Source: an uncultured Verrucomicrobiota bacterium (GTDB lineage Bacteria > Verrucomicrobiota > Kiritimatiellia > CAIKKV01 > CAITUY01). From it: a stretch of DNA of 64,000 nt. How positions within the stretch are numbered: the stretch's first letter is position 1; each line of letters begins with the position of its first letter. Below are positions 37,502 to 64,000 of this stretch, piece after piece. The translations under genes were made by a program, and so were the position numbers. The stretch is taken from positions 22,582 to 86,581 of the forward strand of contig CAZTAJ010000002.1 of the NCBI GenBank assembly GCA_964611575.1, in the 5' to 3' direction. Below the pieces are notes generated by a model. The model made no database searches. It saw nothing but the letters and a program-made list of their open reading frames with translations, and was not told where the DNA came from.

Positions 37502-37508
37502 CTAGGTG

Positions 37509-37541
37509 TGGAGCGTGCGACCGGGTTCGAGCCGGCGACCA
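37509..37541 (-). other. tRNA 3'-end-like fragment (variable loop, T-arm, acceptor 3' strand, discriminator, encoded CCA) without a 5' half
   Basis: The minus strand reads tggtc-GCCGG-CTCGAAC-CCGGT-CGCACGC-T-CCA. No complementary 5' acceptor strand (GCGTGCG) or anticodon arm is present upstream. It lies 7 nt upstream of the PilT-like start, at the onset of the lower-GC region. Confidence 0.35.
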
Positions 37542-37859
37542 TCGGCTTTACAAATGGAGCACATTACAGCTAATGACCAATGAATAAAGGTTTTACTATC
37601 TTTGTTCGCCCAGAAGTTTGATGCTTGTTTGACGACCGCGCCGTTTTCGCCGATGATGCTCGCGTGTGATTGAGTGAGCGGTTTCGGCGTTGCTGACATG
37701 GGTCGGCTCCTATTTCTTACTCATACCTAGCACCCGCACGGAACCCACGTCAATAGAAACCGTTCGGCCCGTAAACCGGCCCGTAAACCGCTCATTGGGA
37801 GGGTCTGTCATGCCTCTCGAACCAAGGCACATGAGGCCGTACGCCGGCGCAGCCATCGC

Positions 37860-40800
37860 TCAGAGTGTTATCGGCAGACTGTCTCTGGCGCATTCAGCCT
37901 GCACAGCGCCCGGCAGGCGGAGAACCGTAGCGAAGTTATAGCCGACATCGCTGCTGGCGAGGGCGAGAATGATGTCCGGCGGTTTGGCCAGAGTTCGGAC
38001 GTCGAGTTCGCTGATCCCGGTCTTCTGAGGCCAGAGTTCGGTCTTTCCGTCTTTGAGAGCCTCCAGGGCCGCCACCAGACTCACAAGGATGGAGGCGGAT
38101 GCAATGTGGCCGGTGTTGAACGTCGTGGTGACCAGGGGCACTTCAGCGGATCGCTCGCCGAGGAGTTCGTCGACGATATCCGTGACTTTCAGGTCCACAC
38201 AGTTTCCCATGGGAGCCCAGACAATCAGTCCGATGTCTGCAGTCACGATGCCGGCGCGATCCATTGCCGATTTCACGGCGTGGCGCAGCCCATCACGGCC
38301 GAGGTTCTGGCCGGAAAACTGCTCTGCGTCCATGCTCATGCCGTAGCTCAGAATCTCCGCCAAGACGTTTGCGCCACGCTCTTTTGCGGACCCCAGAGGT
38401 TCAAGCACCAGCATCGCGGCGCCTTCTCCGAGCACTCGCTCTTGGCAGCGGTCGACTCGCAGCCGGTAATCAGCCTCTTCCTCCCCGCGGTAGAGGTAGC
38501 CGAACCGGTCGTAGTTCGCATAGGTCTGACCGTACACTTCGTCCGAAGCCCCCGCGAGAATGGCCTTGGCGCGGCCGTCTGAGATCATCTCACAAGCGTA
38601 GGCCAGACTCTGCAAGCCCGCGTGTGGACCGGGACTGAGCGACATGTTGACGCCCTTGAGGCACAGTCGCGCCGATACGTAACCGGCTGTGGAATTGGCG
38701 GTCACGGACGAAAATCCGGTGATGTCGGCCACGTGGTTGTCGCTGGTGAAAACACTGTCCATGTGCGCCATTTCTGACGCTCCGCAGCAGACGCCCATAA
38801 CAACGCCTACGTCGTCTGCGTTTTTCGGGCTGACCTTCAGGCTGGCATCTCGGAGAGCGAAACTGGATGCGGCAACGGCCAGCCTGCCGATGTCGGTCAA
38901 TCCCGAAAAGTCCAGCCGACGGTCGACTGCTGACGCTGCAAAGGCCTCGACGAGGCCCGCCAGGCGGGACTGCACATTGTCAAGCGCGAGCCTGTCGATG
39001 GGGCGCAGGCCCACCTTGCCGGCGCGCAGGGCCTGCAACGTTGTTTGTGAGGTAAGTCCCAGCGAGGTGACCAGGCCGGTGCCGGTAATGACAACGCGCT
39101 CCTCGCGGCGCGCGAGTGGCCGGATAGGAGCATCGCGGCCGGCGATGACCACCGCAGCGTTGTTGCCGCCAAAGGCGTAGTTCGCGGAAAGGAAGGCATG
39201 GTAGTTCTTGCTCCGCGCCTGGTTGGGAACATGGTCGAGGGGGCAGCCGGGGCGTGGGGAGGAGAAATTGATGGTCGGCGGGATGAATCCCTCGTTCATG
39301 GCGAACACATTGCACGTTGCTTCCAGGATTCCCGTCGCTCCCATGCAGTGCCCGAAGAACGACTTAAGCGAGACGGTCGGCAGGGGGGTATCCCCGAGAA
39401 ACCCTGCGATGCCTTTCGATTCCGCAACATCGTTGGCGGCGGTCCCTGTGCCGTGGGCGTTGATGCAGCCGAGGTCCCCTAACTCGAACCCGGAATCTCG
39501 GAGCGCATTGTGCAGGGTTCTCGACACGCCGCTCCCGCGGGGGTCGGGCGAGGTCGGATGGTAGGCGTCGGACGTCGTGGAGTTCCCTGCGATTCTTGCC
39601 GTCCAACGACCGTGTCGCAGCAGCACATGTTCCATGCTCTCCACAACCCAGAAACCGGCTCCTTCGCCGATGTTCAACCCTATGGGAAGTGAGAAGGGCG
39701 CCGTGCGCTCACTGGACATCGCTTTCAATGCGTCAAACCCGGACATATTGGCCAGGCAAAGAGCATCGGAGCCTCCGACAATCACCGTGCTGCAGCGGCC
39801 ACGGGCAATCAAATTTTGGGCCAGACCGAGCGCCCCGGTGGTTGAGGAGCAGGCTGTGGTGACGATCCATGTTTCGCCGCCCACGCCCAGCGCTCTGGCC
39901 ATGGCCTTCCCGAAACCGTAGAGTTCGGCCTGTGTGTTCAGTTTTTCGTCGGCGACCCTGGCGCTCTTTCCGTGTTTCCAGGCGTATTCCTGTTCGGCTG
40001 AGAGCAGGCCTCCGTTGCAGGTTCCGAGGACAAGGGCCACGTCACGCCGAACGGCGCCACCGGGCCAGTCAAGGCCCGAGTCCTTGATAGCCATTCTGGC
40101 TGCAGCGATCGCATAGAGAAGGTAGCGGTCATCGTACTCGGCGATTTCCGCATCGGTCAGCCATTCAAGCGGCTCGAAATCGTCGATTTGCCCGCCCAGT
40201 GACGAGCGAAAATGCGAGGTGTCAAAGCGGGTGATCGTGCGGATTCCGTGCCGGCCGTCTCTGAGCGCCTTGGTGACCGTGTCCCGGTCGTTTCCGATAG
40301 GACTGAGAATGCCGATTCCCGTGACGACCGCATGGCTATTGACGCCCTGTTTCTGTAAAGGCTTGCCTAGGATCTGGGCATTGTTCTCCCATGTTGCCGG
40401 CTCAAGGCTGGCAACGTGTTGGTCCTTCTTTAGCGCAAAGAAACCATTCCACACCTTCAGGAACTGCTCGTTGAGCTCATCAGGGGTCATGGTCTGAGGC
40501 CGGAAAACTACGTGTGCGCCATTGTAATGACTCCAATCCCGGTCGATGATCCGGTTCTGCCTCTCCATGCGTTCCCATAAAGGAGCCCCCGGGTATGGCG
40601 TGAAAATGAAGAACTCCGACGTGTGGATGTTGGCCTCGACGAAGAGCGAGAGGATGCGGTCGGCGATGCTGGTATCGTCCCAATCTCTACCCATTGCACA
40701 GGATCCGAAGAAACGGATATCCCGGTCCTCCAGTTTCTTGACGAGATCGATGAGAACCTGGCGAGCATTCTTGTCGCCCTGTAAGGCCCTGATGGAGATC

Positions 40801-41657
40801 GGGTCGACATTCATGGTGCAGTAGAAGTTCCGCACGCCGGCTTCTGCAATCAGGTCCAGGAACGAGGCATCGATGTTCAATGCCAGCGTCGAGGAAACAA
40901 AGTACTTCTTGTTGAGAGGCTTCAGTGCCGTGAAGAGTTCTCTGGCGTAGTCCTTGACCTGGCGCTGCGTGAAGAACAAGGAATCATCGGCCAGATAGAC
41001 GTTTTCATACTTGAGGGTCTTGATTTCCCGTACAACGTGCTCGACGGGACGGAAGCGCATGCGGTTGCCCATGTGCGCCGGGATCGCGCACATGGCGCAG
41101 GCGTACGAGCAGCCACGGGAGACCTGCACCAGGTCCTCATCCCAGTCGTAGGAGTCCTTGCTGTAGAAGATCTCACGTTTGGGGATGGGAAGCTTCGCAA
41201 GATCGAACCGGCATCCGCCGATGTACTTGCGTTTGAGCTGCCCCTGCCGGGCGTCCGCTAGAATGGTTTCCCATACGGGCTCGACTTCTCCCACGTTGAC
41301 GGCGTCGGCATGCTTCAAACACTCGTCAGGCATTGTGGACGGAAAGAACCCGCCCATAATGACCTGTTTGCCGTGCCGGCGAAAGCCGTCCGCGATCTCA
41401 AAGGCCCGAGTTGCCTGCGGAGTGAAACAGTTGATGGCCACCAGGTCGGTGTCGGCGGCGTAGTCAATGGCGTCGCCCCCGTTGTCGTCAATCAGTTCGA
41501 CATCGATCGACTCCGGCGTCAGGGCTGCCATGATCGGAATGCCAAGAGACGGCGGCGTCGTGAAATTGCCGAGAAAATAGCTGACCAGATCGCTATCCAG
41601 ATCCTTGCGAGATTCCAGAAACTTGGTGAATCGAGGATAGACGAAAGAAACCTTCAT
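37860..41657 (-). CDS. Tri-domain fusion: B12-binding radical SAM domain + beta-ketoacyl synthase (KS) + KS-like/chain-length-factor domain
   Basis: 1265 aa. The N-terminal 430 aa form a B12-binding domain plus a radical SAM domain (CSYACAMC = CxxxCxxC). The middle is a full KS (TTACSST active-site Cys, NAHGTGT, GHCMGATG). The C-terminal domain is a KS-fold without the canonical Cys-His-His triad, so it is CLF-like. Confidence 0.8.
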   Translation of the reverse strand: MKVSFVYPRFTKFLESRKDLDSDLVSYFLGNFTTPPSLGIPIMAALTPESIDVELIDDNGGDAIDYAADTDLVAINCFTPQATRAFEIADGFRRHGKQVIMGGFFPSTMPDECLKHADAVNVGEVEPVWETILADARQGQLKRKYIGGCRFDLAKLPIPKREIFYSKDSYDWDEDLVQVSRGCSYACAMCAIPAHMGNRMRFRPVEHVVREIKTLKYENVYLADDSLFFTQRQVKDYARELFTALKPLNKKYFVSSTLALNIDASFLDLIAEAGVRNFYCTMNVDPISIRALQGDKNARQVLIDLVKKLEDRDIRFFGSCAMGRDWDDTSIADRILSLFVEANIHTSEFFIFTPYPGAPLWERMERQNRIIDRDWSHYNGAHVVFRPQTMTPDELNEQFLKVWNGFFALKKDQHVASLEPATWENNAQILGKPLQKQGVNSHAVVTGIGILSPIGNDRDTVTKALRDGRHGIRTITRFDTSHFRSSLGGQIDDFEPLEWLTDAEIAEYDDRYLLYAIAAARMAIKDSGLDWPGGAVRRDVALVLGTCNGGLLSAEQEYAWKHGKSARVADEKLNTQAELYGFGKAMARALGVGGETWIVTTACSSTTGALGLAQNLIARGRCSTVIVGGSDALCLANMSGFDALKAMSSERTAPFSLPIGLNIGEGAGFWVVESMEHVLLRHGRWTARIAGNSTTSDAYHPTSPDPRGSGVSRTLHNALRDSGFELGDLGCINAHGTGTAANDVAESKGIAGFLGDTPLPTVSLKSFFGHCMGATGILEATCNVFAMNEGFIPPTINFSSPRPGCPLDHVPNQARSKNYHAFLSANYAFGGNNAAVVIAGRDAPIRPLARREERVVITGTGLVTSLGLTSQTTLQALRAGKVGLRPIDRLALDNVQSRLAGLVEAFAASAVDRRLDFSGLTDIGRLAVAASSFALRDASLKVSPKNADDVGVVMGVCCGASEMAHMDSVFTSDNHVADITGFSSVTANSTAGYVSARLCLKGVNMSLSPGPHAGLQSLAYACEMISDGRAKAILAGASDEVYGQTYANYDRFGYLYRGEEEADYRLRVDRCQERVLGEGAAMLVLEPLGSAKERGANVLAEILSYGMSMDAEQFSGQNLGRDGLRHAVKSAMDRAGIVTADIGLIVWAPMGNCVDLKVTDIVDELLGERSAEVPLVTTTFNTGHIASASILVSLVAALEALKDGKTELWPQKTGISELDVRTLAKPPDIILALASSDVGYNFATVLRLPGAVQAECARDSLPITL

Positions 41658-41725: not shown

Positions 41726-43171
41726 CTAATCCTTGGTCATTTTTCTGCCTGCCATGGCAAATCGAACGAAGTTGGCGAGATTCAGCACGAATCGCCGCCA
41801 ACTATCCGGTGAGCTCCAGAGCATGGCGAGATACCCTAGCCACACCTTGGGCCGCCGGTAATGCATCTGATAGAATCGGCCGTACAGTTGCTCGATGCGA
41901 GCCTTGGTGAACCCGGTGGGCACAAAAACGAAATGCATGCAATCCATCTGGGCCGGATCTTCATCGAAGGTCCCGAATTCCCCGATGTTCTCGTGGATTG
42001 GCGAGCCGGGAAACGGCGTGAACTTTGTCAGATTGAAGTCGTCGACCGGAAGCGAGAAAACGTACTTCATGCTGCGCTCGATGCTCTCCTCCGTTTCACC
42101 GGGTAACCCCATCATCAGCAAGCCCTTGGTCCTGATTCCCGCCTTCTTGATGTCGCGAATCCTCTGGGCCAGCAACTCAAGATCTGCGTTCTGGCGATGT
42201 TGCGACAGAAGATCAGGGTCGCCGGTTTCAATGCCCAGGCTGATCATCCAACACCCCGCCGCCTTCATTTGGCGCAACAGGTCCGGGTCAACGTGTTCGG
42301 CCCGCACGGCGCAATTGAACGTCATGCCCAGCGGTTTGTTGAGCAACAGGCTGCAGAAATCCCGGACTCTCTGCCGATGGAAGGTGAACTGGTCGTCGTA
42401 GAAGTTGACGTGGCGAATGTGCCATCGCTCCTTGAGGTAAAGCAGGTGTTCGTACAGGTACTCCGCCGAGTTAAAACGGAAGCTCTTTCGGAAGACGGAC
42501 CGGTCGCAGTAGCTGCACTCGTAAGGGCAGCCTCGACTTGAAATGCAGCTCGCGTTCGGAGCGCGCGGATAGTTAAAAATAGGCAGTTTGTAAACGTCGG
42601 GATACCCCGCCAGCTTCTCGTAGGCCGGAAAGGGAAGGCTGTCCAGATCGACTCCGTGCTGCCTGAATCCGGAGAAAGCGACCGTGTGCCCGTCGCGGTA
42701 GGTCAAGCCGGGTATGAGCCCGGGATTCGAATGACCGCTGCGCATTAACGCTTCGAGCGTTTCTTCTCCCTCGCCGACGACGGTGTAGTCGACCTCAGGG
42801 TTCTCCTCCAGGATTCGTTCGCGCAACGCCGACACATGCGGCCCGCCGAGAACCCCCTTGATTCCTGGCATCTCAACCTTGGCCAGCTTGATGATCTGCG
42901 TTGCATCGTGGAACCCGAACGTCGTGCAACCGACGCCGATGAATCCCGGTCGCCGGTCGCGTAGCAGTTCACGGATGAGCCCGCCCGAATCGGGCCACGC
43001 CACGCAATCGACGATATCCGCACGCAGCCCTTTTGATTCCAGGTAGGCGGCGATGCTGGCCATGCCCAGCGGGGGCATCAGGTTGGCGATGCGCGTGATG
43101 TCGCCACGTGCCTCTTCCGGACGATAGCCCAACGGATGAACCAGCAGAATGCGATTCTGATCAAGCGGCAT
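41726..43171 (-). CDS. B12-binding radical SAM protein (class B rSAM)
   Basis: 481 aa with an N-terminal cobalamin-binding Rossmann domain (GFIGVGCTTFGFHDATQIIKLAK) and a CPYECSYC radical SAM cluster motif. Confidence 0.85.
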   Translation of the reverse strand: MPLDQNRILLVHPLGYRPEEARGDITRIANLMPPLGMASIAAYLESKGLRADIVDCVAWPDSGGLIRELLRDRRPGFIGVGCTTFGFHDATQIIKLAKVEMPGIKGVLGGPHVSALRERILEENPEVDYTVVGEGEETLEALMRSGHSNPGLIPGLTYRDGHTVAFSGFRQHGVDLDSLPFPAYEKLAGYPDVYKLPIFNYPRAPNASCISSRGCPYECSYCDRSVFRKSFRFNSAEYLYEHLLYLKERWHIRHVNFYDDQFTFHRQRVRDFCSLLLNKPLGMTFNCAVRAEHVDPDLLRQMKAAGCWMISLGIETGDPDLLSQHRQNADLELLAQRIRDIKKAGIRTKGLLMMGLPGETEESIERSMKYVFSLPVDDFNLTKFTPFPGSPIHENIGEFGTFDEDPAQMDCMHFVFVPTGFTKARIEQLYGRFYQMHYRRPKVWLGYLAMLWSSPDSWRRFVLNLANFVRFAMAGRKMTKD

Positions 43172-43431: not shown

Positions 43432-44607
43432 ATGAAACCGCACAACGTCCAGTTCGACAATCTGATCGCACCCGGGCCTCCCCTGAAGAATGTGGTCGGC
43501 ACATATCCCGGCATTGGCGTCATGTCGGAACTGGTCGACGGTGTGGATGAGGTGGTGGATTTCAAGGGACGTCTCATCCGGCCGAACCCTAACCGCATGT
43601 CGACGCTGGATCTGGGGACCCAGTTCGCCCCCGAAGGGGCGTGTCTCCCGTTCAAGCTGATCATGGGTAACGTGATGGAGTCCCTCAATCGGGGCGCCAA
43701 CACGGTGGGAATGATTACAGAAAATGGGCCTTGCCGGTTGGGGTTCTACAGCCTCGGGATGCGATTGATCTTCAGTGACTTGGGTTTGGGGAACGGGTGG
43801 CTGGAATTCGACAATGCCAGTGTGAGCCGGGGTTACATCAAGTATTTCAGAGAGGCGTACCGGGAGACGCATGGAAAGGAACTCAGCGTCTGGAAGGTTG
43901 GCCAGGGCTTCTGGGTTGGCTTCAGCCGCATTACCGCCGTGGAGAAGCTCCAGGAAGAACGAAATCGCCTGTTAGCCTACGAGAGGGACGCGGGCAGTAT
44001 CAAGGCAGCCTACGACGAAGGGCTTGCGCTGATTCGCGCGGTGCAATCCCCGCTTGCCATGAGGGGGGCCGTCCGGAAGGCGATGCAGAAACTGCACGCC
44101 GTGCCGATCGACCGGTCGCGGGATACGGTCCGTGTGGCTATCACCGGCGAGGTTTACTGCGTGGTGGATCCCTTCGCCAACTCGGACGTGGAGATGCGAT
44201 TGGCGCGCTTGGGGGCGGAGCCGTTGCGCGTCATCTGGCAGGTGAACTATCTTCGCCACAAACTGCACTTGGACCATTTCAGGAAGATCAGCCACGGCCG
44301 GGCGGTGCGCGCGGCCAGGAAATACGTGGGGGAAGACATCGGCGGCGACTGCAACTCCAACATCGGCCATGCGGTTCTGGCTCACCAACGGGGAGATGAT
44401 GGCATGGTCCACGTGAAGCCATTTGGCTGCATGCTGGAGTTCGTGTCCGAGAATTTGCTGCAGAAGGTTGAGGAGGATCTGGACTTCCCCATTCTCAGTC
44501 TCACGCTTGACGATCTGTCGGGTGAGGAGCGGATCAATGTCCGGCTTCAGGCCTTTGTGGACAACCTGTTCCGCCGGAAACACAATCGCATGAAGGGGGG
44601 GCGGTAA
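43432..44607 (+). CDS. 2-hydroxyacyl-CoA dehydratase-like / acyl-CoA dehydratase activase-related protein (DUF2229/HGD-D family)
   Basis: 391 aa resembling the partner subunits of BadF/BcrA-type activases. No cysteine-cluster motif typical of HgdAB was confirmed. Confidence 0.6.
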   Translation: MKPHNVQFDNLIAPGPPLKNVVGTYPGIGVMSELVDGVDEVVDFKGRLIRPNPNRMSTLDLGTQFAPEGACLPFKLIMGNVMESLNRGANTVGMITENGPCRLGFYSLGMRLIFSDLGLGNGWLEFDNASVSRGYIKYFREAYRETHGKELSVWKVGQGFWVGFSRITAVEKLQEERNRLLAYERDAGSIKAAYDEGLALIRAVQSPLAMRGAVRKAMQKLHAVPIDRSRDTVRVAITGEVYCVVDPFANSDVEMRLARLGAEPLRVIWQVNYLRHKLHLDHFRKISHGRAVRAARKYVGEDIGGDCNSNIGHAVLAHQRGDDGMVHVKPFGCMLEFVSENLLQKVEEDLDFPILSLTLDDLSGEERINVRLQAFVDNLFRRKHNRMKGGR

Positions 44608-44608: not shown

Positions 44609-45682
44609 TTGCCACGTCGCCTGGGCATCCTGCGCAGCCTGCTCTATTACCCCTTCTACCCGTTCTGGCACGCGTTCTTCGAGGATCTTGGGTTCTCCAT
44701 CGTCGTGTCCCCACCCCTGTCGAAGGATGATTTTGACCAGCGCCATCGTCATTTCGTAGGCGACATATGTCTCCCGATCGAATCGGCATTTTATCATGTC
44801 GAGGCCATCAAAGACCGTGTGGACATTCTCTTTCTTCCCCGCAACAATCGGATTCACAGAGATACTTATGTATGCCCTGCCTGTGCGGGCTTTCCATACG
44901 TGGTGATGCATAGGGTGCCCCAGTTACCGGATCTGCTGACGATTAACCTGACGCCTTTCCGGCCGCCGGACCGGAGCGACTGTCGGCGTCTCAGGGAGTT
45001 GGGGTGTTCCTCGGGCCAGGTGAAGGCGGCTTATCGAAACGCGCAGCACCGATATCGCGATTTCATCGATTCCTTGTCCGAGCATCCACACCTTGATCAA
45101 GCGATCGACCGATTTGTTGCCGTAGCCTCGGAGTTGCCCGCGCGCCGTCCAACTGCGCCCAGAAACACGGGTGCGCACATTCTCCTGTTGGGCATGCCAT
45201 ACGTGCTGGCTGATCCCTTTGTGAACCAGAGCATCCTGTCAACCCTTGAAAGTTTCGGGTGCCGGGTGTCCACTCCCATGATGCAAGTGCCGGAGTTGGC
45301 ATCGCAGGAGGTTATGATTGAGGGGTACGCCATCTATTGGAGTTTTGCGGGGATGAGTGTCGCCGCACTGGAGAAGTCGCTGCATGCGCGCGACGTGGAT
45401 GCGGTCGTTTACTGTTCATCCTTTGCCTGCGGCGTGGATAGTCTGATCACCCCGATCATTCAGTCCGCCTGTCAACGCTGCTATGACATTCCCCTCTGTA
45501 TTCTCACGATGGATGAGCATTCGGAGGGCTCTTACCTGAATGTTCGAATGGAAGCCTTTCTTGATTGCGTCAACTCCCGGCTTGCCCAACGGACTGACGC
45601 CGCAGAGACTCAGCCCGTACCGCAAGCCTCAGAGGCCAATGCACAGGATGCCCGTCATGATAGATACAACCGAGATGGCTGA
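44609..45682 (+). CDS. Acyl-CoA dehydratase activase-related protein, second DUF2229/HGD-D-like subunit
   Basis: 357 aa. The N-terminus LGILRSLLYYPFYPFWHAFFEDLGFSIVVSP is characteristic of this family. It abuts the previous gene with a 1-bp gap. Confidence 0.6.
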   Translation: MPRRLGILRSLLYYPFYPFWHAFFEDLGFSIVVSPPLSKDDFDQRHRHFVGDICLPIESAFYHVEAIKDRVDILFLPRNNRIHRDTYVCPACAGFPYVVMHRVPQLPDLLTINLTPFRPPDRSDCRRLRELGCSSGQVKAAYRNAQHRYRDFIDSLSEHPHLDQAIDRFVAVASELPARRPTAPRNTGAHILLLGMPYVLADPFVNQSILSTLESFGCRVSTPMMQVPELASQEVMIEGYAIYWSFAGMSVAALEKSLHARDVDAVVYCSSFACGVDSLITPIIQSACQRCYDIPLCILTMDEHSEGSYLNVRMEAFLDCVNSRLAQRTDAAETQPVPQASEANAQDARHDRYNRDG

Positions 45683-52413: not shown

Positions 52414-52908
52414 TTGGGAGACGACACAATGGGAGTCAGGAGAAAACGGAGGCGGCGCTCTATCGAGGAGGCCCGCAGCTATCTGTCCGAGGAGACGCAA
52501 GTGCGCGTGCGTTTCCATGAGGTGGATTCCATGCGTATTGTCTGGCATGGACACTATGTGACCTACTTCGAGGATGCGCGACGGGCCTTCGGACGTCGCT
52601 ACGGGCTCGACTATCCCGTCTTTCTTGAAAACAACATCGGCGCGCCGGTGGTGAGCGTGTGGGTCGATTTTCTCTCTCCGGCCTTGGGGAACGACCTGTT
52701 GGAGGTGGAGGCGCGCCTGTACAAGTCGGAAGGCGCCCAGCTCGAATTCAGCTACGAGGTGAAGCGCGCCCAAACGGGCGTTCTGCTCGCCAGCGGCGGC
52801 AGCGTGCAGGTGTTCACCACATTGAAGGGAGAATTGTTGCTGACTTGGCCGGCTCTGATGCTCGAGCGCTATGAGGCATGGAAAGACTTATGGATCCCCT
52901 CCGCTTGA
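52414..52908 (+). CDS. Acyl-CoA/acyl-ACP thioesterase (4HBT/YbgC-like hotdog)
   Basis: 164 aa with the motif FHEVDSMRIVWHGHYVTYFEDAR, typical of 4HBT thioesterases. Confidence 0.7.
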   Translation: MGDDTMGVRRKRRRRSIEEARSYLSEETQVRVRFHEVDSMRIVWHGHYVTYFEDARRAFGRRYGLDYPVFLENNIGAPVVSVWVDFLSPALGNDLLEVEARLYKSEGAQLEFSYEVKRAQTGVLLASGGSVQVFTTLKGELLLTWPALMLERYEAWKDLWIPSA

Positions 52909-54866: not shown

Positions 54867-55130
54867 ATGTCGATTGAAGAACGAATAGAGGATCTCAAGG
54901 GCAAGATTATCGCGGCTCTTGACCTGGAAGACGTCACTCCCGAGGACATCGATCCGGATGCGCCGTTGTTCCAGGAGGGCCTGGGGCTCGACTCCATCGA
55001 CGCGCTGGAACTCGTGGTGATGCTCGAAAAGGAGTACGGAATCTCCGTCAAGGACATCGAGGTGACGAAGAAGGCGTTTGCATCGGTTCGAGCTCTGGCA
55101 ATCTTCATTGCGGAGAACCATGCTCCATGA
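54867..55130 (+). CDS. Acyl carrier protein
   Basis: 87 aa with the phosphopantetheine attachment motif GLDSIDALEL. Confidence 0.85.
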   Translation: MSIEERIEDLKGKIIAALDLEDVTPEDIDPDAPLFQEGLGLDSIDALELVVMLEKEYGISVKDIEVTKKAFASVRALAIFIAENHAP

Positions 55131-57584: not shown

Positions 57585-57980
57585 ATGAGGCCTTGCGTTG
57601 AACGATCCCTGCTGCGTTGCGAATGCGGAGATTCGACCGGGGAATTTTTCTTTTCGTTTTCGGCATCGGAAGGCACATTCAAGGGGCATTTTCCGAGGCA
57701 TCCGATTCTGCCGGGGGTGTTCCAACTGGAGATGGCCAAGTTTGCATGTGAACGGGTGACGGGCAGGCGTCTTGAGATTGAGAAGATCGAAAGAGCCAAG
57801 TTTTCCCGGCCGATCCTGCCGGAAGAAGAGATCCGTCTGTCGGTGAAGATTCAATCGGGTGAAGGCATTCTGCATGCCCAAGCGATTGTTTTTGTATCCA
57901 GCGAGCAGGCGGGAGGTGTCAGCCTGGTTCTGCGCAGCCGGGGGACTCGGGAGCGGGGGGCAGGCGGCTCAAACGCTTGA
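57585..57980 (+). CDS. Hotdog-fold dehydratase (FabA/FabZ-like; ApeP-like)
   Basis: The motif FKGHFPRHPILPGVFQLEMAKFA is characteristic of FabZ-like dehydratases. It is trimmed from ORF 57276-57980 to the first Met after the upstream stop. Confidence 0.6.
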   Translation: MRPCVERSLLRCECGDSTGEFFFSFSASEGTFKGHFPRHPILPGVFQLEMAKFACERVTGRRLEIEKIERAKFSRPILPEEEIRLSVKIQSGEGILHAQAIVFVSSEQAGGVSLVLRSRGTRERGAGGSNA

Positions 57981-58058: not shown

Positions 58059-58634
58059 ATGAAGAAGGAATGGGTAAAGGCTGGAATCGTGGCGGCGGTG
58101 TTTTTCTGCTCTCTGTTGACGTTTGCTCAAGGGGGGACGACAGACGCGGTCAAGGGAACTATTATGGAGGGCGGATTCAACAAGTTCAAACTGCAGGACA
58201 AGAGCGGCACAAGCTGGCTGTTTTACCCCTCCCAGAAGGCTACCGGCTACGAGCCTGCCGACTGGCGGCCGAACGAGGGCGACGAGGTTGCGGTGGCCTC
58301 CATCGAAGTGAAGCGACGGGATGCCACGATTCTACAGGCGAACCAGATCACACTACTCAAAGCCGGACCCAATACGTTCAGGTTCAAGAGCCCGGTGGAG
58401 GTGGAAATCGTCGAAGCCGGTCGCAGTGGGTACAGGGCCAAGGTCCTGTCCGTTGGCGCCACGGTGAAGTTCGGAAACCAGCGCGGCATGCAAATGGTTC
58501 CGGCGGGTTGGCTCCCTGCCATGGGTGAGAGGGCCATCATAACCTTCATCACCAAACCCATCCCGATCGGCTACTCGATGGGTTACTACATAGTGAAGAT
58601 GGAGAAGGTCGATACCGGCAAGAAGGCTGAGTGA
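58059..58634 (+). CDS. Secreted hypothetical protein (signal peptide)
   Basis: 191 aa with signal peptide MKKEWVKAGIVAAVFFCSLLTFAQG. It is beta-rich and has no recognisable motif. Confidence 0.5.
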   Translation: MKKEWVKAGIVAAVFFCSLLTFAQGGTTDAVKGTIMEGGFNKFKLQDKSGTSWLFYPSQKATGYEPADWRPNEGDEVAVASIEVKRRDATILQANQITLLKAGPNTFRFKSPVEVEIVEAGRSGYRAKVLSVGATVKFGNQRGMQMVPAGWLPAMGERAIITFITKPIPIGYSMGYYIVKMEKVDTGKKAE

Positions 58635-58665: not shown

Positions 58666-59868
58666 ATGAATCGGGTTCTCATTTTTCCTAACACGCATAC
58701 GCTCTCCCACCTGGCCCGTGCCTTGGCTGTGGCGGACTGGCTGGATGGTGCGGGTTGGGAGAGCCATCTTGGAGTCTCGGCGTTGCGTTTGGAGTGGGCC
58801 GCACGGTTCCATTCCCGATGCCACGTTGTGTCGGAACTGTGGGAACCCTCGGGCACTCCGCACCCTTGCGTGAAGTGGTTCCATGATGCGAAGCACGTGA
58901 CGAGGTGCATCGATTCCCAGGAGCGGCTCATCCGCAGCATCTCCCCCTCCCTGATTGTCGGGATTTTTGATTTTCCCTCGGCCGTGAGCGCCGGCAACAT
59001 TCCCCGTCTCAGCATCAATGGCGGGTGCATGCTGCCGTTCTACCCAGGGGTGCTCGGATACGACGCGACTCCATCCTCTCAGCAGACGCTTCAGAAAACG
59101 GTGTTGGATCGCTTCTGGGCCTTCGCCGGACGAGCCTTTAACACCGCTCTGTGCGATCACAGACAGGAGCCAGTCGCGAGCGTGCTCGATCTCCTGGTGG
59201 GCGACGTGAATTTGATCTACGAAATCGACGAGATCTGTCGGCTCCCCAGCTTGTCACCCAACTATCACATGGTCGGTCCGATTGCCTGGGACGGGTGGGA
59301 AGTGATGGGTGAATGCGTATCTCCGTGGCGGAGGGATGACTCAAAACGGACTGTGTATCTCAACTGCGGATCGCTGGCAAGAAACGGACGGGTAAGGACG
59401 AGAATCATGGAGGCGTGCCTCCGGCAGTGCGACCGCCTGCTGGTCAGTACGGGTCTGAACGGTGGCGGGGATGTGAAGTCGGACCGGGTTCAGATCAGGC
59501 CGTTTCTTTCCCCGGCGGGCGCCACTGCCGTCGCTGACGTCGTGGTCTGCACGGGCGGGGTCGGCGCCTGTTACACCAACCTGTTGCATGGAGTTCCGTC
59601 CCTGGTGGTGCCAATGCAGCCCGAACAGGAAACGAACGGCATCAACTTGGAGCGAGCGGGATGCGGCAGGGTCCTGAGGGCGAACCTTGTCTTTCTTGGC
59701 GATCCGCGACAGTACGAAGAGTCGCTCGACTATGGATACTTGGAGGAAACACTGCACGAGATGCTGGCAACGCAAGACCTCGAACAGGGGTGCGAGCAGG
59801 TCCGGGAGCGGCTCTTGAAGTGCCGGACTCGCGAGGCGGTCATTGATCTTGCCGGGAGTCTGCAATGA
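58666..59868 (+). CDS. GT1-family (MGT/UDP-glycosyltransferase-like) glycosyltransferase
   Basis: 400 aa with a GT-B fold. The C-terminal nucleotide-sugar motif is VVCTGGVGACYTNLLHGVPSLVVPMQPEQETNG. Confidence 0.7.
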   Translation: MNRVLIFPNTHTLSHLARALAVADWLDGAGWESHLGVSALRLEWAARFHSRCHVVSELWEPSGTPHPCVKWFHDAKHVTRCIDSQERLIRSISPSLIVGIFDFPSAVSAGNIPRLSINGGCMLPFYPGVLGYDATPSSQQTLQKTVLDRFWAFAGRAFNTALCDHRQEPVASVLDLLVGDVNLIYEIDEICRLPSLSPNYHMVGPIAWDGWEVMGECVSPWRRDDSKRTVYLNCGSLARNGRVRTRIMEACLRQCDRLLVSTGLNGGGDVKSDRVQIRPFLSPAGATAVADVVVCTGGVGACYTNLLHGVPSLVVPMQPEQETNGINLERAGCGRVLRANLVFLGDPRQYEESLDYGYLEETLHEMLATQDLEQGCEQVRERLLKCRTREAVIDLAGSLQ

Positions 59869-61451
59869 AAGGACGGCTGAGAGCGTTTCTGGTGCATGGA
59901 ATGGGAAGCTCGCCGGGATGGTGGAATCCGCTCATCGCCCCGCTTCAGAGCCTGGGACTGGAACCCGCTGCACTGGAAATGCCTTCTCTTGAATCACACG
60001 GCCCGGCGGCATGGGTTGACGCGATTGTGCGGCACGCAGGCCACGCTCCAATCCTTCTGATCGGGCATTCGCTGGGTGCGGCCGTGTGCGTGGTGGCCTC
60101 TCGTCGAATCTCTTGTGTCGGGATCATCCTGCTGGCCTGTCCTCCGTTCTTCGATGACTACCGTCCGTCGCCTCCGGCGGGAACCGGCCTCTCCGTCCGC
60201 GCTGTGACAAGGGTTGGGATGTTCCTGCGCGATGCCGCGCGGGAATCGACTCTGGTGACAACGGATTCCATTCATTTCATCGGTGACGCCGACCCATTCA
60301 TCCCAGCGGAACAGGCGGCGCGCCTGCCCTTTCCCCTGATTGTGATCCCTTCCGCGGACCATGATCCGATGGACTCGATGCGCTTCATGAAAGCGCTGAT
60401 CGAGCACATCGTCAATTCGCGGTTCGGAAAACACTTCCTCGATCCTGCAGTCCGTGCGCCGTCGCGTCTCCGCGCGTCGGACACCCTTGGGGAGGCGATG
60501 GATTTGAATGAAGCCGCACCTCCCCCGGCTCGGATCGATCTGGAGATCACCACCCGCTGCCAGTGCGCCTGTCCGCGATGTGCCAGAACGCTGTTCCCGA
60601 CCTTGGCCCGACCCATGGATATGAGCCGGGTGTTCTTCGAACGAGTGATGGGCGAGTGCTCCGGAGCTGGCGAGATCATTTTCGTTGGGCTGGGCGAACC
60701 GCTGCTTCACCCTGATCTCCCCTTCTTCGTTTCCACGTGCGCGAGACTGCAGATGAACGTCAGTGTGGTCACCAACGGCCTGCTGGCGGAACCCGGTCTG
60801 GTGGAAACGCTATTTGAGGCCGGTCTTGGGGAGATCACGTTCAGCATCGATTCCACCGACCCCGAAAGGTTTCGGTCTCTGCGCGGAGGGGCCGATTTGC
60901 GGCGGGTTCTGGTCAATTTCCGTGCGGTGCGGGCAGGTCGGCATAAATCGATATTCGTGACGCTCTCCCAACAGAATGTGGGAGACCTGCGGGGATTGGT
61001 GGATCTCGCTGCGAGCGAGGGGCTGCGCGCCATTGCGGTCTCTGATGTGAACTTCCCGGAGAATGCCGACGAGTCCCTGCACCAAGCCCAAGCGGAGATG
61101 GATCTGGGTGCCGCCATCGCATACGCGCAGGAACGTAATGTTCTGCTCATTGACCCCAGGTTTCACAACACCGGAGATCCGCGGCGTCATCCTCTTCGTT
61201 GCACGGCAAGAAAGCCTGCGAACATTATGGGAAGATCCTGCCGCCATCGTCATTGCCTGGCCCCCTGGCGCATTGCGGTGGTGGGGGTGAATGGCGACCT
61301 GACGCCGTGCAATTGTGCGCCGAAGGCGGCGGTTGGCAGCCTTGCCCGTGGCTCGATGGCGGATGGATGGAACGGGCCAGACATGGCGAGATGGCGCAAG
61401 GCCGTCATGGGCGGCGAGTGCCAGTCGTGCTTGACCTGTCCCAGGTACTGA
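59865..61451 (+). CDS. Fusion of alpha/beta-hydrolase domain (GHSLG nucleophile elbow) and radical SAM-SPASM domain
   Basis: The N-terminal 190 aa or so have GHSLGA plus an Asp/His-bearing alpha/beta-hydrolase layout. Then comes a radical SAM CxxxCxxC (CQCACPRC). The C-terminal Cys cluster is C..C....C...C.C (SPASM/twitch-like). Confidence 0.75.
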   Translation: MKGRLRAFLVHGMGSSPGWWNPLIAPLQSLGLEPAALEMPSLESHGPAAWVDAIVRHAGHAPILLIGHSLGAAVCVVASRRISCVGIILLACPPFFDDYRPSPPAGTGLSVRAVTRVGMFLRDAARESTLVTTDSIHFIGDADPFIPAEQAARLPFPLIVIPSADHDPMDSMRFMKALIEHIVNSRFGKHFLDPAVRAPSRLRASDTLGEAMDLNEAAPPPARIDLEITTRCQCACPRCARTLFPTLARPMDMSRVFFERVMGECSGAGEIIFVGLGEPLLHPDLPFFVSTCARLQMNVSVVTNGLLAEPGLVETLFEAGLGEITFSIDSTDPERFRSLRGGADLRRVLVNFRAVRAGRHKSIFVTLSQQNVGDLRGLVDLAASEGLRAIAVSDVNFPENADESLHQAQAEMDLGAAIAYAQERNVLLIDPRFHNTGDPRRHPLRCTARKPANIMGRSCRHRHCLAPWRIAVVGVNGDLTPCNCAPKAAVGSLARGSMADGWNGPDMARWRKAVMGGECQSCLTCPRY

Positions 61452-61536: not shown

Positions 61537-62340
61537 ATGAGAACATTCCCTGATGCCGGTCACCCCGGACGCGTGCCCGCAGCGCCAGAAGAGCGGCTTC
61601 TTGTCACTTGGGTTCGCAGAATGGTGTTTGGTGTGGTGGGGCTGTGTTCCTATCCGAGTCTGGCCATCATCAACACACTGAAGATATCAGGGACGGAACA
61701 CCTCAGATGCCTGCCAAGGGAAAACGTCCTATTTGTCAGCAACCACCAAACCTACTTTGCCGATGTGATTGCCATTCTGCATATTCTTTGTGCCGTGAGA
61801 GTGGGGAAGACGCGTAGTTTGGGGATTCCGTACTACTTGCTCGCACCCTTTACCCGTGTCAACTATGTGGCATCTGAACAAACCATGAATGGCACTTGGA
61901 TCAGCCGCCTTTTTGCGGTGGCTGGGGCCGTGACGGTAAGAAGAACCTGGAACGCAGAAGCAAAGGAAACCCGCAAGGGCCTTGATCCATCGGATACTCG
62001 GAAGATCACCAGGGCACTTGCCCGGAACTGGGTGATTACTTTTCCCCAGGGAACCACCACACCATTTGCGCCGGGAAGAAGAGGAACGGCACTCATCATC
62101 AAACATAACAGACCCATCGTCATCCCTGTAATTATTGACGGATTTGGGAAAGCTTTCAACAAGACAGGCTTAAAACTCAGGAAGCCAGGAACAATCCTGA
62201 CGGTTCAGTTCAAAAAGGCATTGGATATAGATTATGGTGCCCGATCAGAAGACATGCTTGAGCAGATAATGGGCGCCATTGAGCAAAGCAAGGCGTATGC
62301 GATGCCAGAAGACACAGAACGGACGACGACTCATGAGTAG
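61537..62340 (+). CDS. 1-acyl-sn-glycerol-3-phosphate acyltransferase (PlsC/AGPAT-family)
   Basis: It has the NHQTYFAD (NHxxxxD) catalytic motif and FPQGTT (FPEGT-like) block. The start may be internal. Confidence 0.7.
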   Translation: MRTFPDAGHPGRVPAAPEERLLVTWVRRMVFGVVGLCSYPSLAIINTLKISGTEHLRCLPRENVLFVSNHQTYFADVIAILHILCAVRVGKTRSLGIPYYLLAPFTRVNYVASEQTMNGTWISRLFAVAGAVTVRRTWNAEAKETRKGLDPSDTRKITRALARNWVITFPQGTTTPFAPGRRGTALIIKHNRPIVIPVIIDGFGKAFNKTGLKLRKPGTILTVQFKKALDIDYGARSEDMLEQIMGAIEQSKAYAMPEDTERTTTHE

Positions 62341-62598
62341 AACATAGTTGCTGCGAACGACCGGGCTATGATGCAATATGCATTGGATTAATGGGCGAGA
62401 TCAAGGTCTGGCACGAAAGCAACGGCGCAATGTTCCCGCCAAGCGAAGGACACACCAACAGGACCGGGGGAACTCGCTGATCACACTCGGGAGCACTTCA
62501 TGTCGCAGCAGAAAGCATCGGACGTCGACCATCGAACACGGAATGCCAAAGGAAGGCGGATCCTCTGCCGCCACAGCGCCTCGCCTCGCTGTTGGATC

Positions 62599-63246
62599 AT
62601 GAATCTTCGATATGTGCCGCTGGCCGTTGTATTGCTGCTGCCAATGGCCCCGCTCTGCGCGGAAACGAATACCGCGTTGGCGGTGGAGCGGCTGCGAGGT
62701 ATACAGGAAAGGCTGAGTGCGGTTCGTACGGTGCAGGCGGATTTCGAGCAGGAGAAGGACCTCTCGCTGTTCAAGCAGAAGATCGTTATCGTGGGACGGA
62801 TCTACCTTGAGAACCCCGGTCGGTTCGCCTGGCACGCCGAGAAGCCGGTGCGCTATCGGCTCGTAATCAACGAGGATGATGTCCGGCAATGGGACGAGGA
62901 TACGCGCCAGGCACAGCGACTGCCTGTTGAGGGGAATCCTCTGTTCAAGATGGCGACGGGGCAGATGCGCGACTGCTTTGCCGGGCGTTACGAGGGGATG
63001 CTGAAGGAATGCGACATGACGGTGTCGGGCGTGTCCGCGCTGACGATTCGGTTTGTTCCAAAGCCAGCCGCCCTTACGGCGAAAGCGCTTCGGGCGTTGG
63101 AGGTGACGCTGCAGGGAGATGAGCGATATATTTCCTGCATTCGGTTTGAAGATCTCAACGGAGATGCCACGACGATTCGGTTCAAGAACGCAGTTCTGAA
63201 CGAAGCAATCGACCCCCGGGCCTGGGAGGTCACGCCGCGTGAGTAA
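62599..63246 (+). CDS. LolA-like outer-membrane lipoprotein carrier family protein (ApeM-like)
   Basis: It has signal peptide MNLRYVPLAVVLLLPMAPLCAE and a LolA/LolB-like beta-clam motif VQADFEQEK. Trimmed from ORF 62500. Confidence 0.6.
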   Translation: MNLRYVPLAVVLLLPMAPLCAETNTALAVERLRGIQERLSAVRTVQADFEQEKDLSLFKQKIVIVGRIYLENPGRFAWHAEKPVRYRLVINEDDVRQWDEDTRQAQRLPVEGNPLFKMATGQMRDCFAGRYEGMLKECDMTVSGVSALTIRFVPKPAALTAKALRALEVTLQGDERYISCIRFEDLNGDATTIRFKNAVLNEAIDPRAWEVTPRE

Positions 63247-64000
63247 GCATCCGTTTTTGGGCATCCACGAATTCTGCCGCTGCCATCGGTGGGGGTTGCT
63301 CATGGTCTCCGCAGTGATGACGTTGGCCGCCGGCGTCTCGCTGTGGTTCGTGCAGTACGATAAGACTCTGGATTCCATGCTTCCGGCACGCAGCTCGATC
63401 CCCCGAGTGATGGAGGTGCTTCGGGATGCACGCCTCTCGAATAAGATTGTGGTCAGCGTAGGCTCCGTCGTGGCGGGTGCCACGGCGCATGATGTCATGA
63501 TCGCGGCCGATCAACTGGCGACTTCGCTTGCGCAATCGCCGCTGATCAACCAAGCCACGGCGGATTTCACGCGCATGGCGTCCGTCGACGATATGGCCCT
63601 GTTCTATCAGGCGGCGCCCGAACTCCTGGGGGAAGAGGATGTCCGTGAGATGGGCGTTGCCGTGACGCCGGAAGGGGTGCGCGCCGCTCTCAGGCGGCGA
63701 TACGTGCAACTCATGAAGCCCGAGGGCAACTTCCTCGCTCCCTTGATCCGTGCCGACCCCCTCGATGTCCGCTGGCGGGTCGTGGAACGGCTGCAGGCCG
63801 CGATGTCCTCCTTTGGGTACGATGTCAACATGGTCGAGGGCCACCTCATGAGCCGGGACGGACGGCATTGCATGATTGTGGCCGAGACTCCGATTGCGCC
63901 GACCGACAATGTCGGAGCTATGGCCTTGGTGAAGATGTTGACCGCGAAGATCGGGTCGTTGCCGACAGGTTTCACGGCGGACACGATATGCGGTCACATG
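63239..64000 (+). CDS. MMPL/RND-family exporter, 5'-partial view (continues past window)
   Basis: Manual translation from the GTG at 63239 (alternative ATG at 63302) gives ...MVSAVMTLAAGVSLWFVQYDKTLDSMLP...., an N-terminal TM segment plus a periplasmic domain typical of MMPL/HpnN-like lipid exporters. There is no stop in the window. Its start overlaps the LolA-like stop. Confidence 0.55.
   Translation, partial: MSKHPFLGIHEFCRCHRWGLLMVSAVMTLAAGVSLWFVQYDKTLDSMLPARSSIPRVMEVLRDARLSNKIVVSVGSVVAGATAHDVMIAADQLATSLAQSPLINQATADFTRMASVDDMALFYQAAPELLGEEDVREMGVAVTPEGVRAALRRRYVQLMKPEGNFLAPLIRADPLDVRWRVVERLQAAMSSFGYDVNMVEGHLMSRDGRHCMIVAETPIAPTDNVGAMALVKMLTAKIGSLPTGFTADTICGHM

Follow-up and report, generated by a model that had tools for sequence, protein, structure and literature searches.

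What is made by the dense block of lipid genes on the right-hand side of this stretch of DNA? The stretch (64,000 nt from an uncultured Verrucomicrobiota bacterium of the class Kiritimatiellia; contig CAZTAJ010000002.1, positions 22,582 to 86,581) is called the window below, and its positions are used throughout. An initial annotation had marked positions 37,502 to 64,000 as a lower-GC island in which parts typical of aryl polyene (APE) clusters are accompanied by radical enzymes. Our analysis describes one composite biosynthetic cluster of ∼33 kb, running from 37.86 kb to the equivalent of window position 71 kb, as far as the sequence was followed. The cluster is a hybrid of three parts: a nearly complete APE-type gene set, the radical S-adenosylmethionine (rSAM) module of ladderane-like clusters, and an accessory trio of genes for an ATP-driven Fe–S reductase/dehydratase. 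It probably makes a fatty-acyl or polyene lipid that is modified by the rSAM enzymes and destined for the outer membrane, a reading that leads from the domain identities, catalytic residues, and recurrent gene linkage observed here to putative substrates, reaction types, and a product.

The three parts also occur together elsewhere. The APE-type block is contiguous with the rSAM gene g02 and with g01, a fusion of an rSAM domain to a ketosynthase (KS) and a chain-length factor (CLF), in locus L001 and on the contig of the g01 homologue P0010. Two homologues of h27, the last rSAM gene of the cluster (P0184 and P0192), appear to share their contigs with homologues of the fusion (P0005 and P0010), to judge by the matching lengths of the longest contigs, and in L090 and L091 homologues of the trio (g03–g05) are part of lipid clusters that are ladderane- or APE-like.

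Domain calls were based on Pfam and NCBIfam profile searches. Every domain assignment of the initial annotation was reproduced by one or the other, weakly for the outer-membrane barrel and the glycosyltransferase, and the searches agree with its description of a dense, mostly co-directional lipid and type II polyketide synthase-like cluster in which APE-type parts are joined by extra radical enzymes. It had also expected the cluster to continue past position 64,000. This proved right, as a public contig (L082; 100% identical over the 1001 bp aligned, window 63,000–64,000) extends the cluster by ∼7 kb. The ketoreductase (KR), ammonia-lyase, and methyltransferase that it had noted as absent from view are not encoded anywhere from 37.5 kb to window-equivalent 71 kb, and neither FabD nor a phytoene-desaturase-like gene was found up to that point.

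An APE-type set for chain assembly, anchoring, and export

The central part of the cluster consists of the following genes, together with the rSAM gene g19, which is listed in the next section (acyl carrier protein is abbreviated ACP; positions above 64,000 are window-equivalent).

48448–49086, minus strand: g07, small outer-membrane beta-barrel-like protein of 212 aa in a public gene call (PF13505, 25.4 bits, under the cutoff)
49424–50947, plus strand: g08, acyl-AMP ligase of the starter-activating ApeH type (PF00501, 190.8 bits; PF13193)
50944–51939, plus strand: g09, LpxL/lysophospholipid-acyltransferase family, ApeD-like (PF03279, 64 bits)
51973–52395, plus strand: g10, ApeP-like hot-dog dehydratase, 140 aa (PF22817, precomputed on the identical protein)
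52429–52908, plus strand: g11, 4HBT/YbgC-type thioesterase, ApeK-like (PF13279, PF03061)
52878–54089, plus strand: g12, KS, ApeO-like, Cys-His-His triad intact (PF00109, PF02801)
54086–54796, plus strand: g13, truncated KS-like CLF, ApeC-like, 236 aa (weak PF00109)
54867–55130, plus strand: g14, ACP, 87 aa, motif GLDSID (PF00550, 46.9 bits)
55127–57544, plus strand: g15, KS::CLF fusion, 805 aa (PF00109, PF02801)
57585–57980, plus strand: g16, ApeI-like hot-dog dehydratase, 131 aa (PF22818, PF07977; PDB 3esi, 6qsr_A)
58059–58634, plus strand: g17, secreted or lipoprotein-like protein, 191 aa, hydrophobic signal-like N terminus, no Pfam match
58666–59868, plus strand: g18, GT1/GT28-type glycosyltransferase at the ApeJ position (weak PF04101, PF06722, MGT)
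61621–62340, plus strand: g20, PlsC-type acyltransferase (PF01553, 30.5 bits)
62500–63246, plus strand: g21, LolA-like periplasmic lipid carrier, ApeL-like (PF03548, 47 bits)
63239–64000, ending at 65641, plus strand: h22, MMPL/RND (HAE3/HpnN-like) exporter, ApeM-like, 800 aa (Pfam MMPL; NCBIfam HAE3, HpnN)
65638–66333: h23, DUF3261/ApeN-like protein (weak DUF3261 match, E=0.0016)
66428–67201, minus strand: polysaccharide deacetylase-like protein (Pfam Polysacc_deac_1)
Between the deacetylase gene and h26: 215-aa protein of no assigned family

Compared with the gene table of the apeA-R cluster of Escherichia coli CFT073, the block from g08 to the DUF3261 gene maps gene for gene onto ApeH, D, P, K, O, C, E, R, I, J, L, M, and N (PMC8253772). 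The likeness to APE clusters (those of E. coli CFT073 and Xenorhabdus doucetiae) covers the starter AMP ligase (g08) and dedicated ACP (g14), a KS/CLF heterodimer (ApeO/ApeC; g12/g13) with an extra KS (ApeR; g15), and the ApeI/ApeP pair of hot-dog dehydratases (g16/g10). It extends to the enzymes of lipid anchoring, namely a 4HBT thioesterase (ApeK), an LpxL-like acyltransferase (ApeD), and a glycosyltransferase (ApeJ, with weak glycosyltransferase matches), to the export trio of LolA-like (ApeL), RND/MMPL (ApeM), and DUF3261 (ApeN) proteins, and to the layout as a single co-directional operon with overlapping genes. In contrast to APE clusters, the present one lacks the ApeQ ketoreductase (no gene between 37.5 kb and window-equivalent 71 kb matched a short-chain dehydrogenase/reductase or KR family), the ApeB methyltransferase, ApeG, and a second ACP. 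Two of its KS/CLF pairs are single polypeptides, six rSAM domains and an activase-dependent Fe–S enzyme have been added, and the host is an anaerobe of the Planctomycetota–Verrucomicrobiota–Chlamydiota (PVC) group. The likeness is one of genes; an aryl starter and a product of the APE kind, an aryl-headed conjugated polyene carboxylic acid, would be putative here.

Several family matches within the block help to place individual proteins. The ligase g08 resembles fatty-acyl and aryl-CoA ligases and has no NCBIfam match above the cutoff; its position and neighbors agree with the APE gene table (PMC8253772). For g09 the best NCBIfam match is a PIM acyltransferase, under the cutoff, and g11 scores 65.9 bits against TIGR00051 (cutoff 68.7). 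FabZ proteins are matched by g10 both in NCBIfam (weakly) and in the PDB. All three KS domains of the cluster (g01, g12, and g15) keep the Cys-His-His triad, and all three CLF partners have lost the Cys: g13 has Gly in its place and lacks the C-terminal His region, and the C-terminal half of g15 has Arg for Cys and no first triad His, whereas the triad is complete in its N-terminal half. The PDB matches of g12 (9s5h_B, FabF, and the APE ketosynthase 6qsp_A) all lie at ∼E=1e-47, and in searches with g12 and with the KS-CLF region of g01, the APE, ishigamide, 9s5h, and FabF ketosynthases fell within ∼5 bits of one another and were not separated. Homologues of two less well-defined members occur in related clusters (g07 in L001, L015, and L044; g17 in L091, with 36% identity), and L038 has a pair of g18 and g19 homologues beside the fusion. 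The LolA, MMPL, DUF3261, and outer-membrane protein genes point to the outer membrane, where the initial annotation had also placed the product.

Six radical SAM domains, one fused to a KS/CLF pair

Four of the six rSAM genes lie inside the window and two beyond it.

37860–41657, minus strand: g01, B12-binding/rSAM::KS::CLF fusion, 1265 aa (PF02310, weak; PF04055, PF00109, PF02801)
41726–43171, minus strand: g02, class-B (B12-binding) rSAM protein, 481 aa (PF02310, 78 bits; PF04055, 87 bits)
46613–48073, plus strand: g06, class-B rSAM protein, 486 aa, last gene of the g03–g06 operon (PF02310, PF04055)
59865–61451, plus strand: g19, alpha/beta-hydrolase::rSAM::SPASM fusion, 528 aa (PF12697, PF04055, PF13186)
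68213–69457 (window-equivalent): h26, B12-binding/rSAM protein, 414 aa (weak PF02310 and PF04055)
69411–70916 (window-equivalent; L082:19547–21052): h27, B12-rSAM protein, 501 aa, TIGR04072 member (PF02310, PF04055)

The CxxxCxxC motif is intact in all six domains (from residue 215 in g02, 221 in g06, and 232 in g19), and five of the six carry B12-binding domains. PF02310 and PF04055 match strongly on g02, g06, and h27 and weakly on g01 and h26. The sole member of TIGR04072 (rSAM_ladder_B12, "lipid biosynthesis B12-binding/radical SAM protein") is h27, outside the window, with 598.7 bits against a cutoff of 360; membership of g01, g02, and g06 was rejected at 48–87 bits. Homologues of h27 number in the thousands and come from PVC bacteria, Desulfobacterales, and Omnitrophota. 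One identical copy (P0178) lies on a contig that ends 155 nt past the gene. Other family assignments were also tried. The best NCBIfam matches of g02 (BchE, HpnJ, and a P-methyltransferase) all fall far under their cutoffs (BchE, 159 bits; cutoff, 481), g06 was rejected as HpnR, the hopanoid C-3 methylase (229 bits against a cutoff of 650), and g19 has no NCBIfam match above the cutoff. In L091 a related rSAM-SPASM protein is fused to an ApeP-like dehydratase.

The fusion g01 consists of a B12-rSAM domain (residues ∼1–440), a ketosynthase (∼441–842), and a chain-length-factor-like domain (∼850–1265). Across 23 homologues, there is no variation in the rSAM motif C183-x3-C187-x2-C190 or in the KS triad C603/H735/H770; the CLF half has neither the Cys nor either His. 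The rSAM domain at the N terminus is paralogous to h26 (E=6e-57; 31% identity along ∼420 residues). Since h26 is the partner of h27, the fusion covalently ties a ladderane-type rSAM enzyme to a KS/CLF pair. The gene g02 lies directly upstream of g01 in the same operon and is syntenic with the fusion in L001, L002, L019, L044, and L081.

The initial annotation had described the cluster as heavily decorated with radical enzymes. The rSAM genes are no one-off decoration, and the fusion is not unique: h27 is a full TIGR04072 member, ladderane-type clusters occur in several phyla, and our search for homologues of g01 returned >245 full-length proteins with 47%–93% identity. A scan of species-representative genomes found 111 fusion loci, in Kiritimatiellia, Victivallales/Lentisphaerae, Verrucomicrobiia, Opitutales, Fibrobacterota, and Omnitrophota. 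The closest (86%–87% identity) are in Victivallales-type metagenome-assembled genomes (MAGs), and carriers among the Opitutales include Puniceicoccaceae Marseille-Q1082, apparently a cultured isolate.

Elsewhere, a set of partners of its own nearly always follows the fusion. Of the 34 fusion loci that extend over 20 kb or more, 32 carry a second ACP gene and a GcvT-like gene after the fusion, 29 a KR gene, and 22 a FabD gene; 4HBT, flavodoxin/SCP2, ApeP-like dehydratase, and PlsC genes are also frequent. When these usual partners (second ACP, GcvT-like, KR, FabD, flavodoxin/SCP2, ApeP, and second PlsC) were searched for across the window, we obtained only weak cross-matches to g14 and g11, plus the outer-membrane protein, and the KR of L001 had no tblastn match in the window. 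The fusion may here lean on the neighboring ACP and dehydratases and on housekeeping FabD/FabG, may depend on genes elsewhere, or may be decaying or non-functional. The GcvT-like proteins (L001, 15060–16172; L081, 14354–15436) belong to the folate-binding aminomethyltransferase family, and one idea is that they supply one-carbon units to cobalamin enzymes.

An activase-dependent Fe–S trio as a mobile accessory

Three genes form an operon with the rSAM gene g06.

43432–44607, plus strand: g03, DUF2229-like subunit, 391 aa (weak PF09989)
44609–45682, plus strand: g04, DUF2229/HGD-D-like catalytic subunit, 357 aa (PF09989, 121.6 bits; PF06050, 23.5 bits, under the cutoff)
45657–46649, plus strand: g05, HgdC/BcrAD-type ATP-dependent activase of 330 aa in public gene calls (PF01869, 142.6 bits)

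The activase g05, whose longest open reading frame (ORF) starts at 45540, scores 170 bits against TIGR00241 (acyl-CoA dehydratase activase), above the cutoff of 125 bits. At its C terminus it carries an extra CPHCGNQCKIC motif (CxxC-x3-CxxC), which suggests an added metal- or Fe–S-binding tail. The other two proteins are distant paralogues (23% identity, E=1e-9), and a g03 homologue stands directly upstream of the g04 homologue in every case in L089, L090, and L091.

A PDB sequence search with g03 and g04 found nothing, and the two share only ∼12%–14% sequence identity with solved members of their superfamily and match no NCBIfam family. A fold search was more informative. The AlphaFold2 model of g04 (mean predicted local distance difference test score, pLDDT, of 84) matched the beta subunit of 2-hydroxyisocaproyl-CoA dehydratase (3o3n_B, E=2.8e-10), as well as class I benzoyl-CoA reductases (BzdNO and MbdON) and the double-cubane cluster protein; the matches to 3o3n_B, 8s02, 9g87, and 7yyl had E=1e-7 to 3e-10 and a probability of 1.0. 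Residues C54, C89, and C274 of g04 are invariant in 24 homologues and are candidate Fe–S ligands. Distant homologues of g04 (25%–30% identity, 351–377 aa; P0163–P0170) come from MAGs of Asgard archaea (Promethearchaeota, Thorarchaeota).

We therefore place g03 and g04 in the wider superfamily of 2-hydroxyacyl-CoA dehydratases, benzoyl-CoA reductases, and double-cubane cluster proteins. The initial annotation had seen in them two dehydratase-like partners of an activase. The activase stands; dehydration is just one of several possible reactions, and the domain families are shared with the ether-lipid enzymes PlsA and Ger. As in HadBC/HgdAB with their activases HadI/HgdC, in class I benzoyl-CoA reductases, and in the double-cubane protein, a BcrAD_BadFG activase accompanies two paralogous subunits of the HGD-D/DUF2229 fold. 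Unlike those systems, the trio is usually found inside lipid clusters, with a B12-rSAM gene in the same locus. Ger and PlsA combine PF01869, PF09989, and PF06050 in one polypeptide, in which DUF2229 and HGD-D segments come after two BcrAD_BadFG domains (the "BBD" core) (PMC13159169), whereas the trio has these families on three separate proteins and a single ATPase domain.

The distribution of the trio differs from that of the fusion. It is absent from L001, which has a g06 homologue, and from all 34 fusion loci surveyed. In L089 (8875–13454), g03–g06 form a stand-alone four-gene operon (76%–88% amino-acid identity) with pilin, rubrerythrin, sulfatase, and hydrogenase genes as neighbors and no lipid genes within 10 kb. 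In L090 (145–6384) the trio is duplicated and adjoins h26/h27 homologues and LpxL, ACP, and KS genes; in L091 (4947–11946) it is again duplicated and adjoins genes for the rSAM-SPASM::ApeP protein, LolA, MMPL, DUF3261, a g06 homologue, and an AMP ligase. The copies in L090 and L091 are tandem or divergent, one near to the trio of the window (45%–67% identity) and one distant (24%–48%). A B12-rSAM gene is present in all three loci, directly adjacent only in L089. Absent from the fusion loci and recurrent in L089, L090, and L091, the trio is a mobile accessory to lipid clusters of this family.

Relation to ladderane-type clusters

Clusters of this kind have been known since 2009, both beside anammox ladderane genes and in non-anammox bacteria such as Desulfotalea psychrophila, which has a syntenic cluster and no ladderanes (PMC2649909). 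"Ladderane" cluster calls of unassigned function were later mined in Verrucomicrobiota, Fibrobacterota, Omnitrophota, and Desulfobacterota, and ladderanes themselves have been reported only from anammox genera (PMC9902471). The phyla with such calls are those in which we found the g01 fusion and h27. As in the ladderane-type clusters of Kuenenia (KustE3603–3608, kuste3335–3352) and D. psychrophila, a TIGR04072 B12-rSAM gene stands here beside a second B12-rSAM gene. Also shared are KS paralogues with one dead partner, a dedicated ACP, and FabZ-like dehydratases (Cluster I; bioRxiv 10.64898/2026.05.19.726425), as well as a polysaccharide-deacetylase-like gene (PMC2649909; bioRxiv 10.64898/2026.05.19.726425). 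In contrast, the present cluster has no phytoene-desaturase-like gene and no Kuste3347-type SAM methyltransferase (amine-oxidase, FAD, and methyltransferase families were unmatched), one of its rSAM domains is covalently fused to a KS-CLF pair, and it has an APE-type line for anchoring and export.

The initial annotation had called the product unusual and possibly undescribed. In the open-access literature, we found no paper on the rSAM::KS::CLF fusion, on its ACP/GcvT-like/KR/FabD partners, or on the activase trio in this setting. The kind of cluster is known, given its TIGR04072 member and the record since 2009, and we regard it as a "known unknown" rather than an unseen class: its parts and both parent cluster types are known, and the ladderane-type family is recognized and uncharacterized.

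A proposed route to the product

A plausible order of events can be read from the gene set. The AMP ligase g08 would activate a carboxylic-acid starter and load it onto the ACP g14, and the three KS/CLF pairs (g12/g13, g15, and g01) would then extend the chain with malonyl units. The ApeP/ApeI-like pair (g10 and g16) would dehydrate the intermediates; because the cluster has no KR, ketoreduction must come from a KR encoded elsewhere. The six rSAM domains would act on unactivated chain carbons, methylating them and/or forming C–C bonds (rings) or cross-links. At least one such step probably takes place on the growing ACP-bound chain, since the rSAM domain of g01 is fused to its KS-CLF pair.

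A related logic is seen in jawsamycin biosynthesis, with a likeness that is mechanistic only: Jaw4 is a type I polyketide synthase, and Jaw5 is a separate protein, a HemN-like rSAM enzyme and not a class-B (B12) one. Jaw5 has been proposed to act on an alpha,beta-unsaturated intermediate, still bound to the ACP, between extension rounds (PMC13459092), and the rSAM::KS::CLF fusion suggests the same logic here.

In the next step, the activase g05 would feed low-potential electrons, driven by ATP, to the g03/g04 Fe–S heterodimer, which together with the B12-rSAM enzyme g06 may reduce or dehydrate its substrate at a (thio)ester carbonyl by ketyl-radical-type chemistry. The thioesterase g11, the acyltransferases g09 and g20, the glycosyltransferase g18, and the deacetylase-like enzyme would attach the chain to a glycolipid or lipid anchor. 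Finally, g21, the MMPL/RND exporter, the DUF3261 protein, and the small outer-membrane protein would carry the product to the outer membrane.

Composition of the block and its left edge

The shift in base composition that the initial annotation had placed near 37.5 kb was confirmed. GC content falls from 0.665 (positions 1–37501) to 0.595 (37502–64000), with 1-kb bins averaging 0.665 (sd 0.031) to the left and 0.596 (sd 0.024) to the right, and the share of 60-nt lines with 40%–55% GC rises from 6.6% to 25.2%. The 22 ORFs of the left flank have a GC at third codon positions (GC3) of 0.832 ± 0.043, against 0.712 ± 0.053 for 20 ORFs of the cluster (Mann-Whitney p=1e-7), so the shift extends to synonymous sites. 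In two relatives, cluster and flanks agree (0.555 vs. 0.543 in L081; 0.615 vs. 0.608 in L001), and the gap of seven points is therefore peculiar to the present genome. A relative of ∼60% GC is the probable source of the block, through acquisition or recombination. Synteny with the closest relative, L001, stops exactly at the stop codon of the fusion, where GC changes. An AT-rich spacer of 358 bp (37502–37860), with a called 65-aa ORF, separates that stop codon from the unrelated flank.

The designation as an island stands on these two grounds solely, composition and the loss of synteny at the left edge. No integrase or transposase was found at that edge, a search for tRNA genes as island marks found none, and no meaningful direct or inverted repeats mark it. 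No Rfam family was matched and hence no cobalamin riboswitch.

Could the compositional break instead be an assembly chimera of two organisms joined at ∼37.6 kb? GC and GC3 do change abruptly exactly where synteny with relatives ends, and three other public assemblies all break at one position, 216 bp beyond the stop codon of the fusion. However, two independent Logan assemblies (SRR12261224 and SRR12261225) read straight through the junction. The break in the other three falls at the same 30-mer (junction node 37644–37673), and the broken cluster-side contig ends share a 30-nt (k−1) suffix-prefix match with flank contigs, from the same sample in two cases. Such a match indicates a branch in the assembly graph and not a missing junction; it also led us to reject a variable island edge as the cause of the identical contig ends. 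The shared break implies that some samples hold an alternative path, possibly a strain variant. With the left junction reproduced in five independent assemblies, the junction is real, and a chimera is very unlikely.

Left of 37.86 kb, the genes have no relation to the cluster; they include an ATPase-like ORF, an AraC regulator, a UroD-like gene, and a peptidase, as well as two genes of one-carbon metabolism and, farther out, the loci listed below.

2256–5246 and 14463–19234, both minus strand: type II secretion F and E genes and a fused ABC exporter pair with an HlyD-type adaptor, in the high-GC left flank and unrelated to the cluster
8717–13297, minus strand: 1526-aa coiled-coil type ORF, rich in Ala, Glu, Gln, and Arg, without a Pfam match
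27908–31492, plus strand: MetH, B12-dependent methionine synthase
31642–33519, plus strand: homocysteine S-methyltransferase::MTHFR (HMT::MTHFR) fusion

The 1526-aa ORF contains several near-identical tandem repeats of ∼110 aa each and accounts for an AT skew of about −0.45 at 9–13 kb. MetH and the HMT::MTHFR fusion lie 4–10 kb to the left of a cluster with five B12-binding rSAM domains; their proximity may be a housekeeping coincidence or may be relevant to SAM and methyl supply.

Alternative explanations

A number of observations weigh against the proposal of one cluster making an rSAM-modified outer-membrane lipid. The starter, chain length, and unsaturation, like the reactions of the six rSAM domains, are read from sequence, and no rSAM protein inside the window reaches the cutoff of any characterized NCBIfam family (HpnR, HpnP, BchE, HpnJ, PhpK, and others). 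The usual second ACP, GcvT-like, KR, and FabD partners of the fusion are absent from the 71 kb examined, and the island edge lacks mobility genes, tRNA genes, and repeats. The modules are separable elsewhere, with g03–g06 alone in L089, so that their co-location here could be partly accidental, and the AMP-ligase block adjoins the fusion in only one of the 34 surveyed loci of at least 20 kb. These last points, together with the ACP, KR, FabD, dehydratase, and PlsC set that the fusion normally has to itself, would be expected if two or three independent systems were merely adjacent: an ordinary aryl polyene pigment cluster (g08 to the DUF3261 gene) and unrelated rSAM operons (g01–g02, g03–g06, and h26–h27) acting on other substrates. 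We consider this unlikely. The rSAM gene g19 is embedded in the APE-type operon, between the glycosyltransferase and PlsC-like genes and with overlapping frames, and the h26–h27 module comes directly after the MMPL and DUF3261 genes. The same mixtures recur in L001, on the P0010 contig, and in L090 and L091; the whole block has one atypical composition; and a fusion without its own ACP, KR, and FabD would need the neighboring ACP and dehydratases.

Two further readings give a single module the leading part. If the main role were ether or plasmalogen-like lipid remodeling, the trio would be a PlsA/Ger-type reductase, split over several proteins, that converts ester to ether bonds on the acyl chains added by the LpxL-like and PlsC-like enzymes. 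The trio does have exactly the PF01869, PF09989, and PF06050 families of Ger and PlsA (PMC13159169), acyltransferases are present in the same cluster, and the chemistry is all anaerobic. But Ger conserves a fused layout with two ATPase domains (PMC13159169), and the trio is missing from the closest syntenic cluster and from every fusion locus, as befits an accessory rather than a core function. The fold search does not separate PlsA/Ger-like chemistry from that of dehydratases, benzoyl-CoA reductases, or the double-cubane protein, and three KS/CLF pairs and six rSAM domains would be left unexplained; we find this role quite improbable. Most improbable of all is the production of true ladderane lipids with fused cyclobutanes, as in anammox bacteria. 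It would fit the host, a member of the PVC group, the pairing of a TIGR04072 protein with a second B12-rSAM enzyme, and the KS/CLF pairs, dedicated ACP, FabZ-like dehydratases, and deacetylase-like gene shared with Kuenenia (PMC2649909; bioRxiv 10.64898/2026.05.19.726425). Against it stand the lack of a phytoene-desaturase-like gene and a Kuste3347-like methyltransferase from 37.5 to 71 kb, the thousands of TIGR04072 homologues across non-anammox phyla, the ladderane-free D. psychrophila with its syntenic cluster (PMC2649909), and the restriction of reported ladderanes to anammox genera (PMC9902471).

Implications for lipid biosynthesis in anaerobes

Our preferred reading, a single cluster for an rSAM-modified lipid of the outer membrane, has consequences beyond this genome. 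APE-type genes for anchoring and export accompany the ladderane-type pair of B12-rSAM genes, which argues that the product is placed in the outer membrane. A paralogue of h26 is fused to a KS/CLF pair in hundreds of genomes, and this argues for radical modification on the ACP-bound chain during elongation. A more specific proposal, which we offer tentatively and hold to be doubtful as it stands, is that the fusion performs radical C–C bond formation or C-methylation on the ACP-bound chain between condensations and that the PVC, Fibrobacterota, and Omnitrophota clusters make undescribed polycyclic or heavily branched outer-membrane lipids. If true, the fusion would be a "Rosetta stone" indicating that cobalamin rSAM enzymes and KS/CLF pairs act stepwise during elongation in ladderane-type clusters, which is one of three competing models for ladderane biosynthesis. 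As the Puniceicoccaceae carrier of the fusion is apparently cultured, the question is testable outside slow-growing anammox cultures.

Were the modules independent, the finding would shrink to an APE-like cluster beside uncharacterized rSAM operons. The recurring link in lipid clusters between an ATP-driven Fe–S reductase/dehydratase and a B12-rSAM enzyme offers a new lead for anaerobic lipid chemistry, perhaps the formation of ethers or reductive tailoring, and the three-part fusion enzyme could help to test how such lipids are made.

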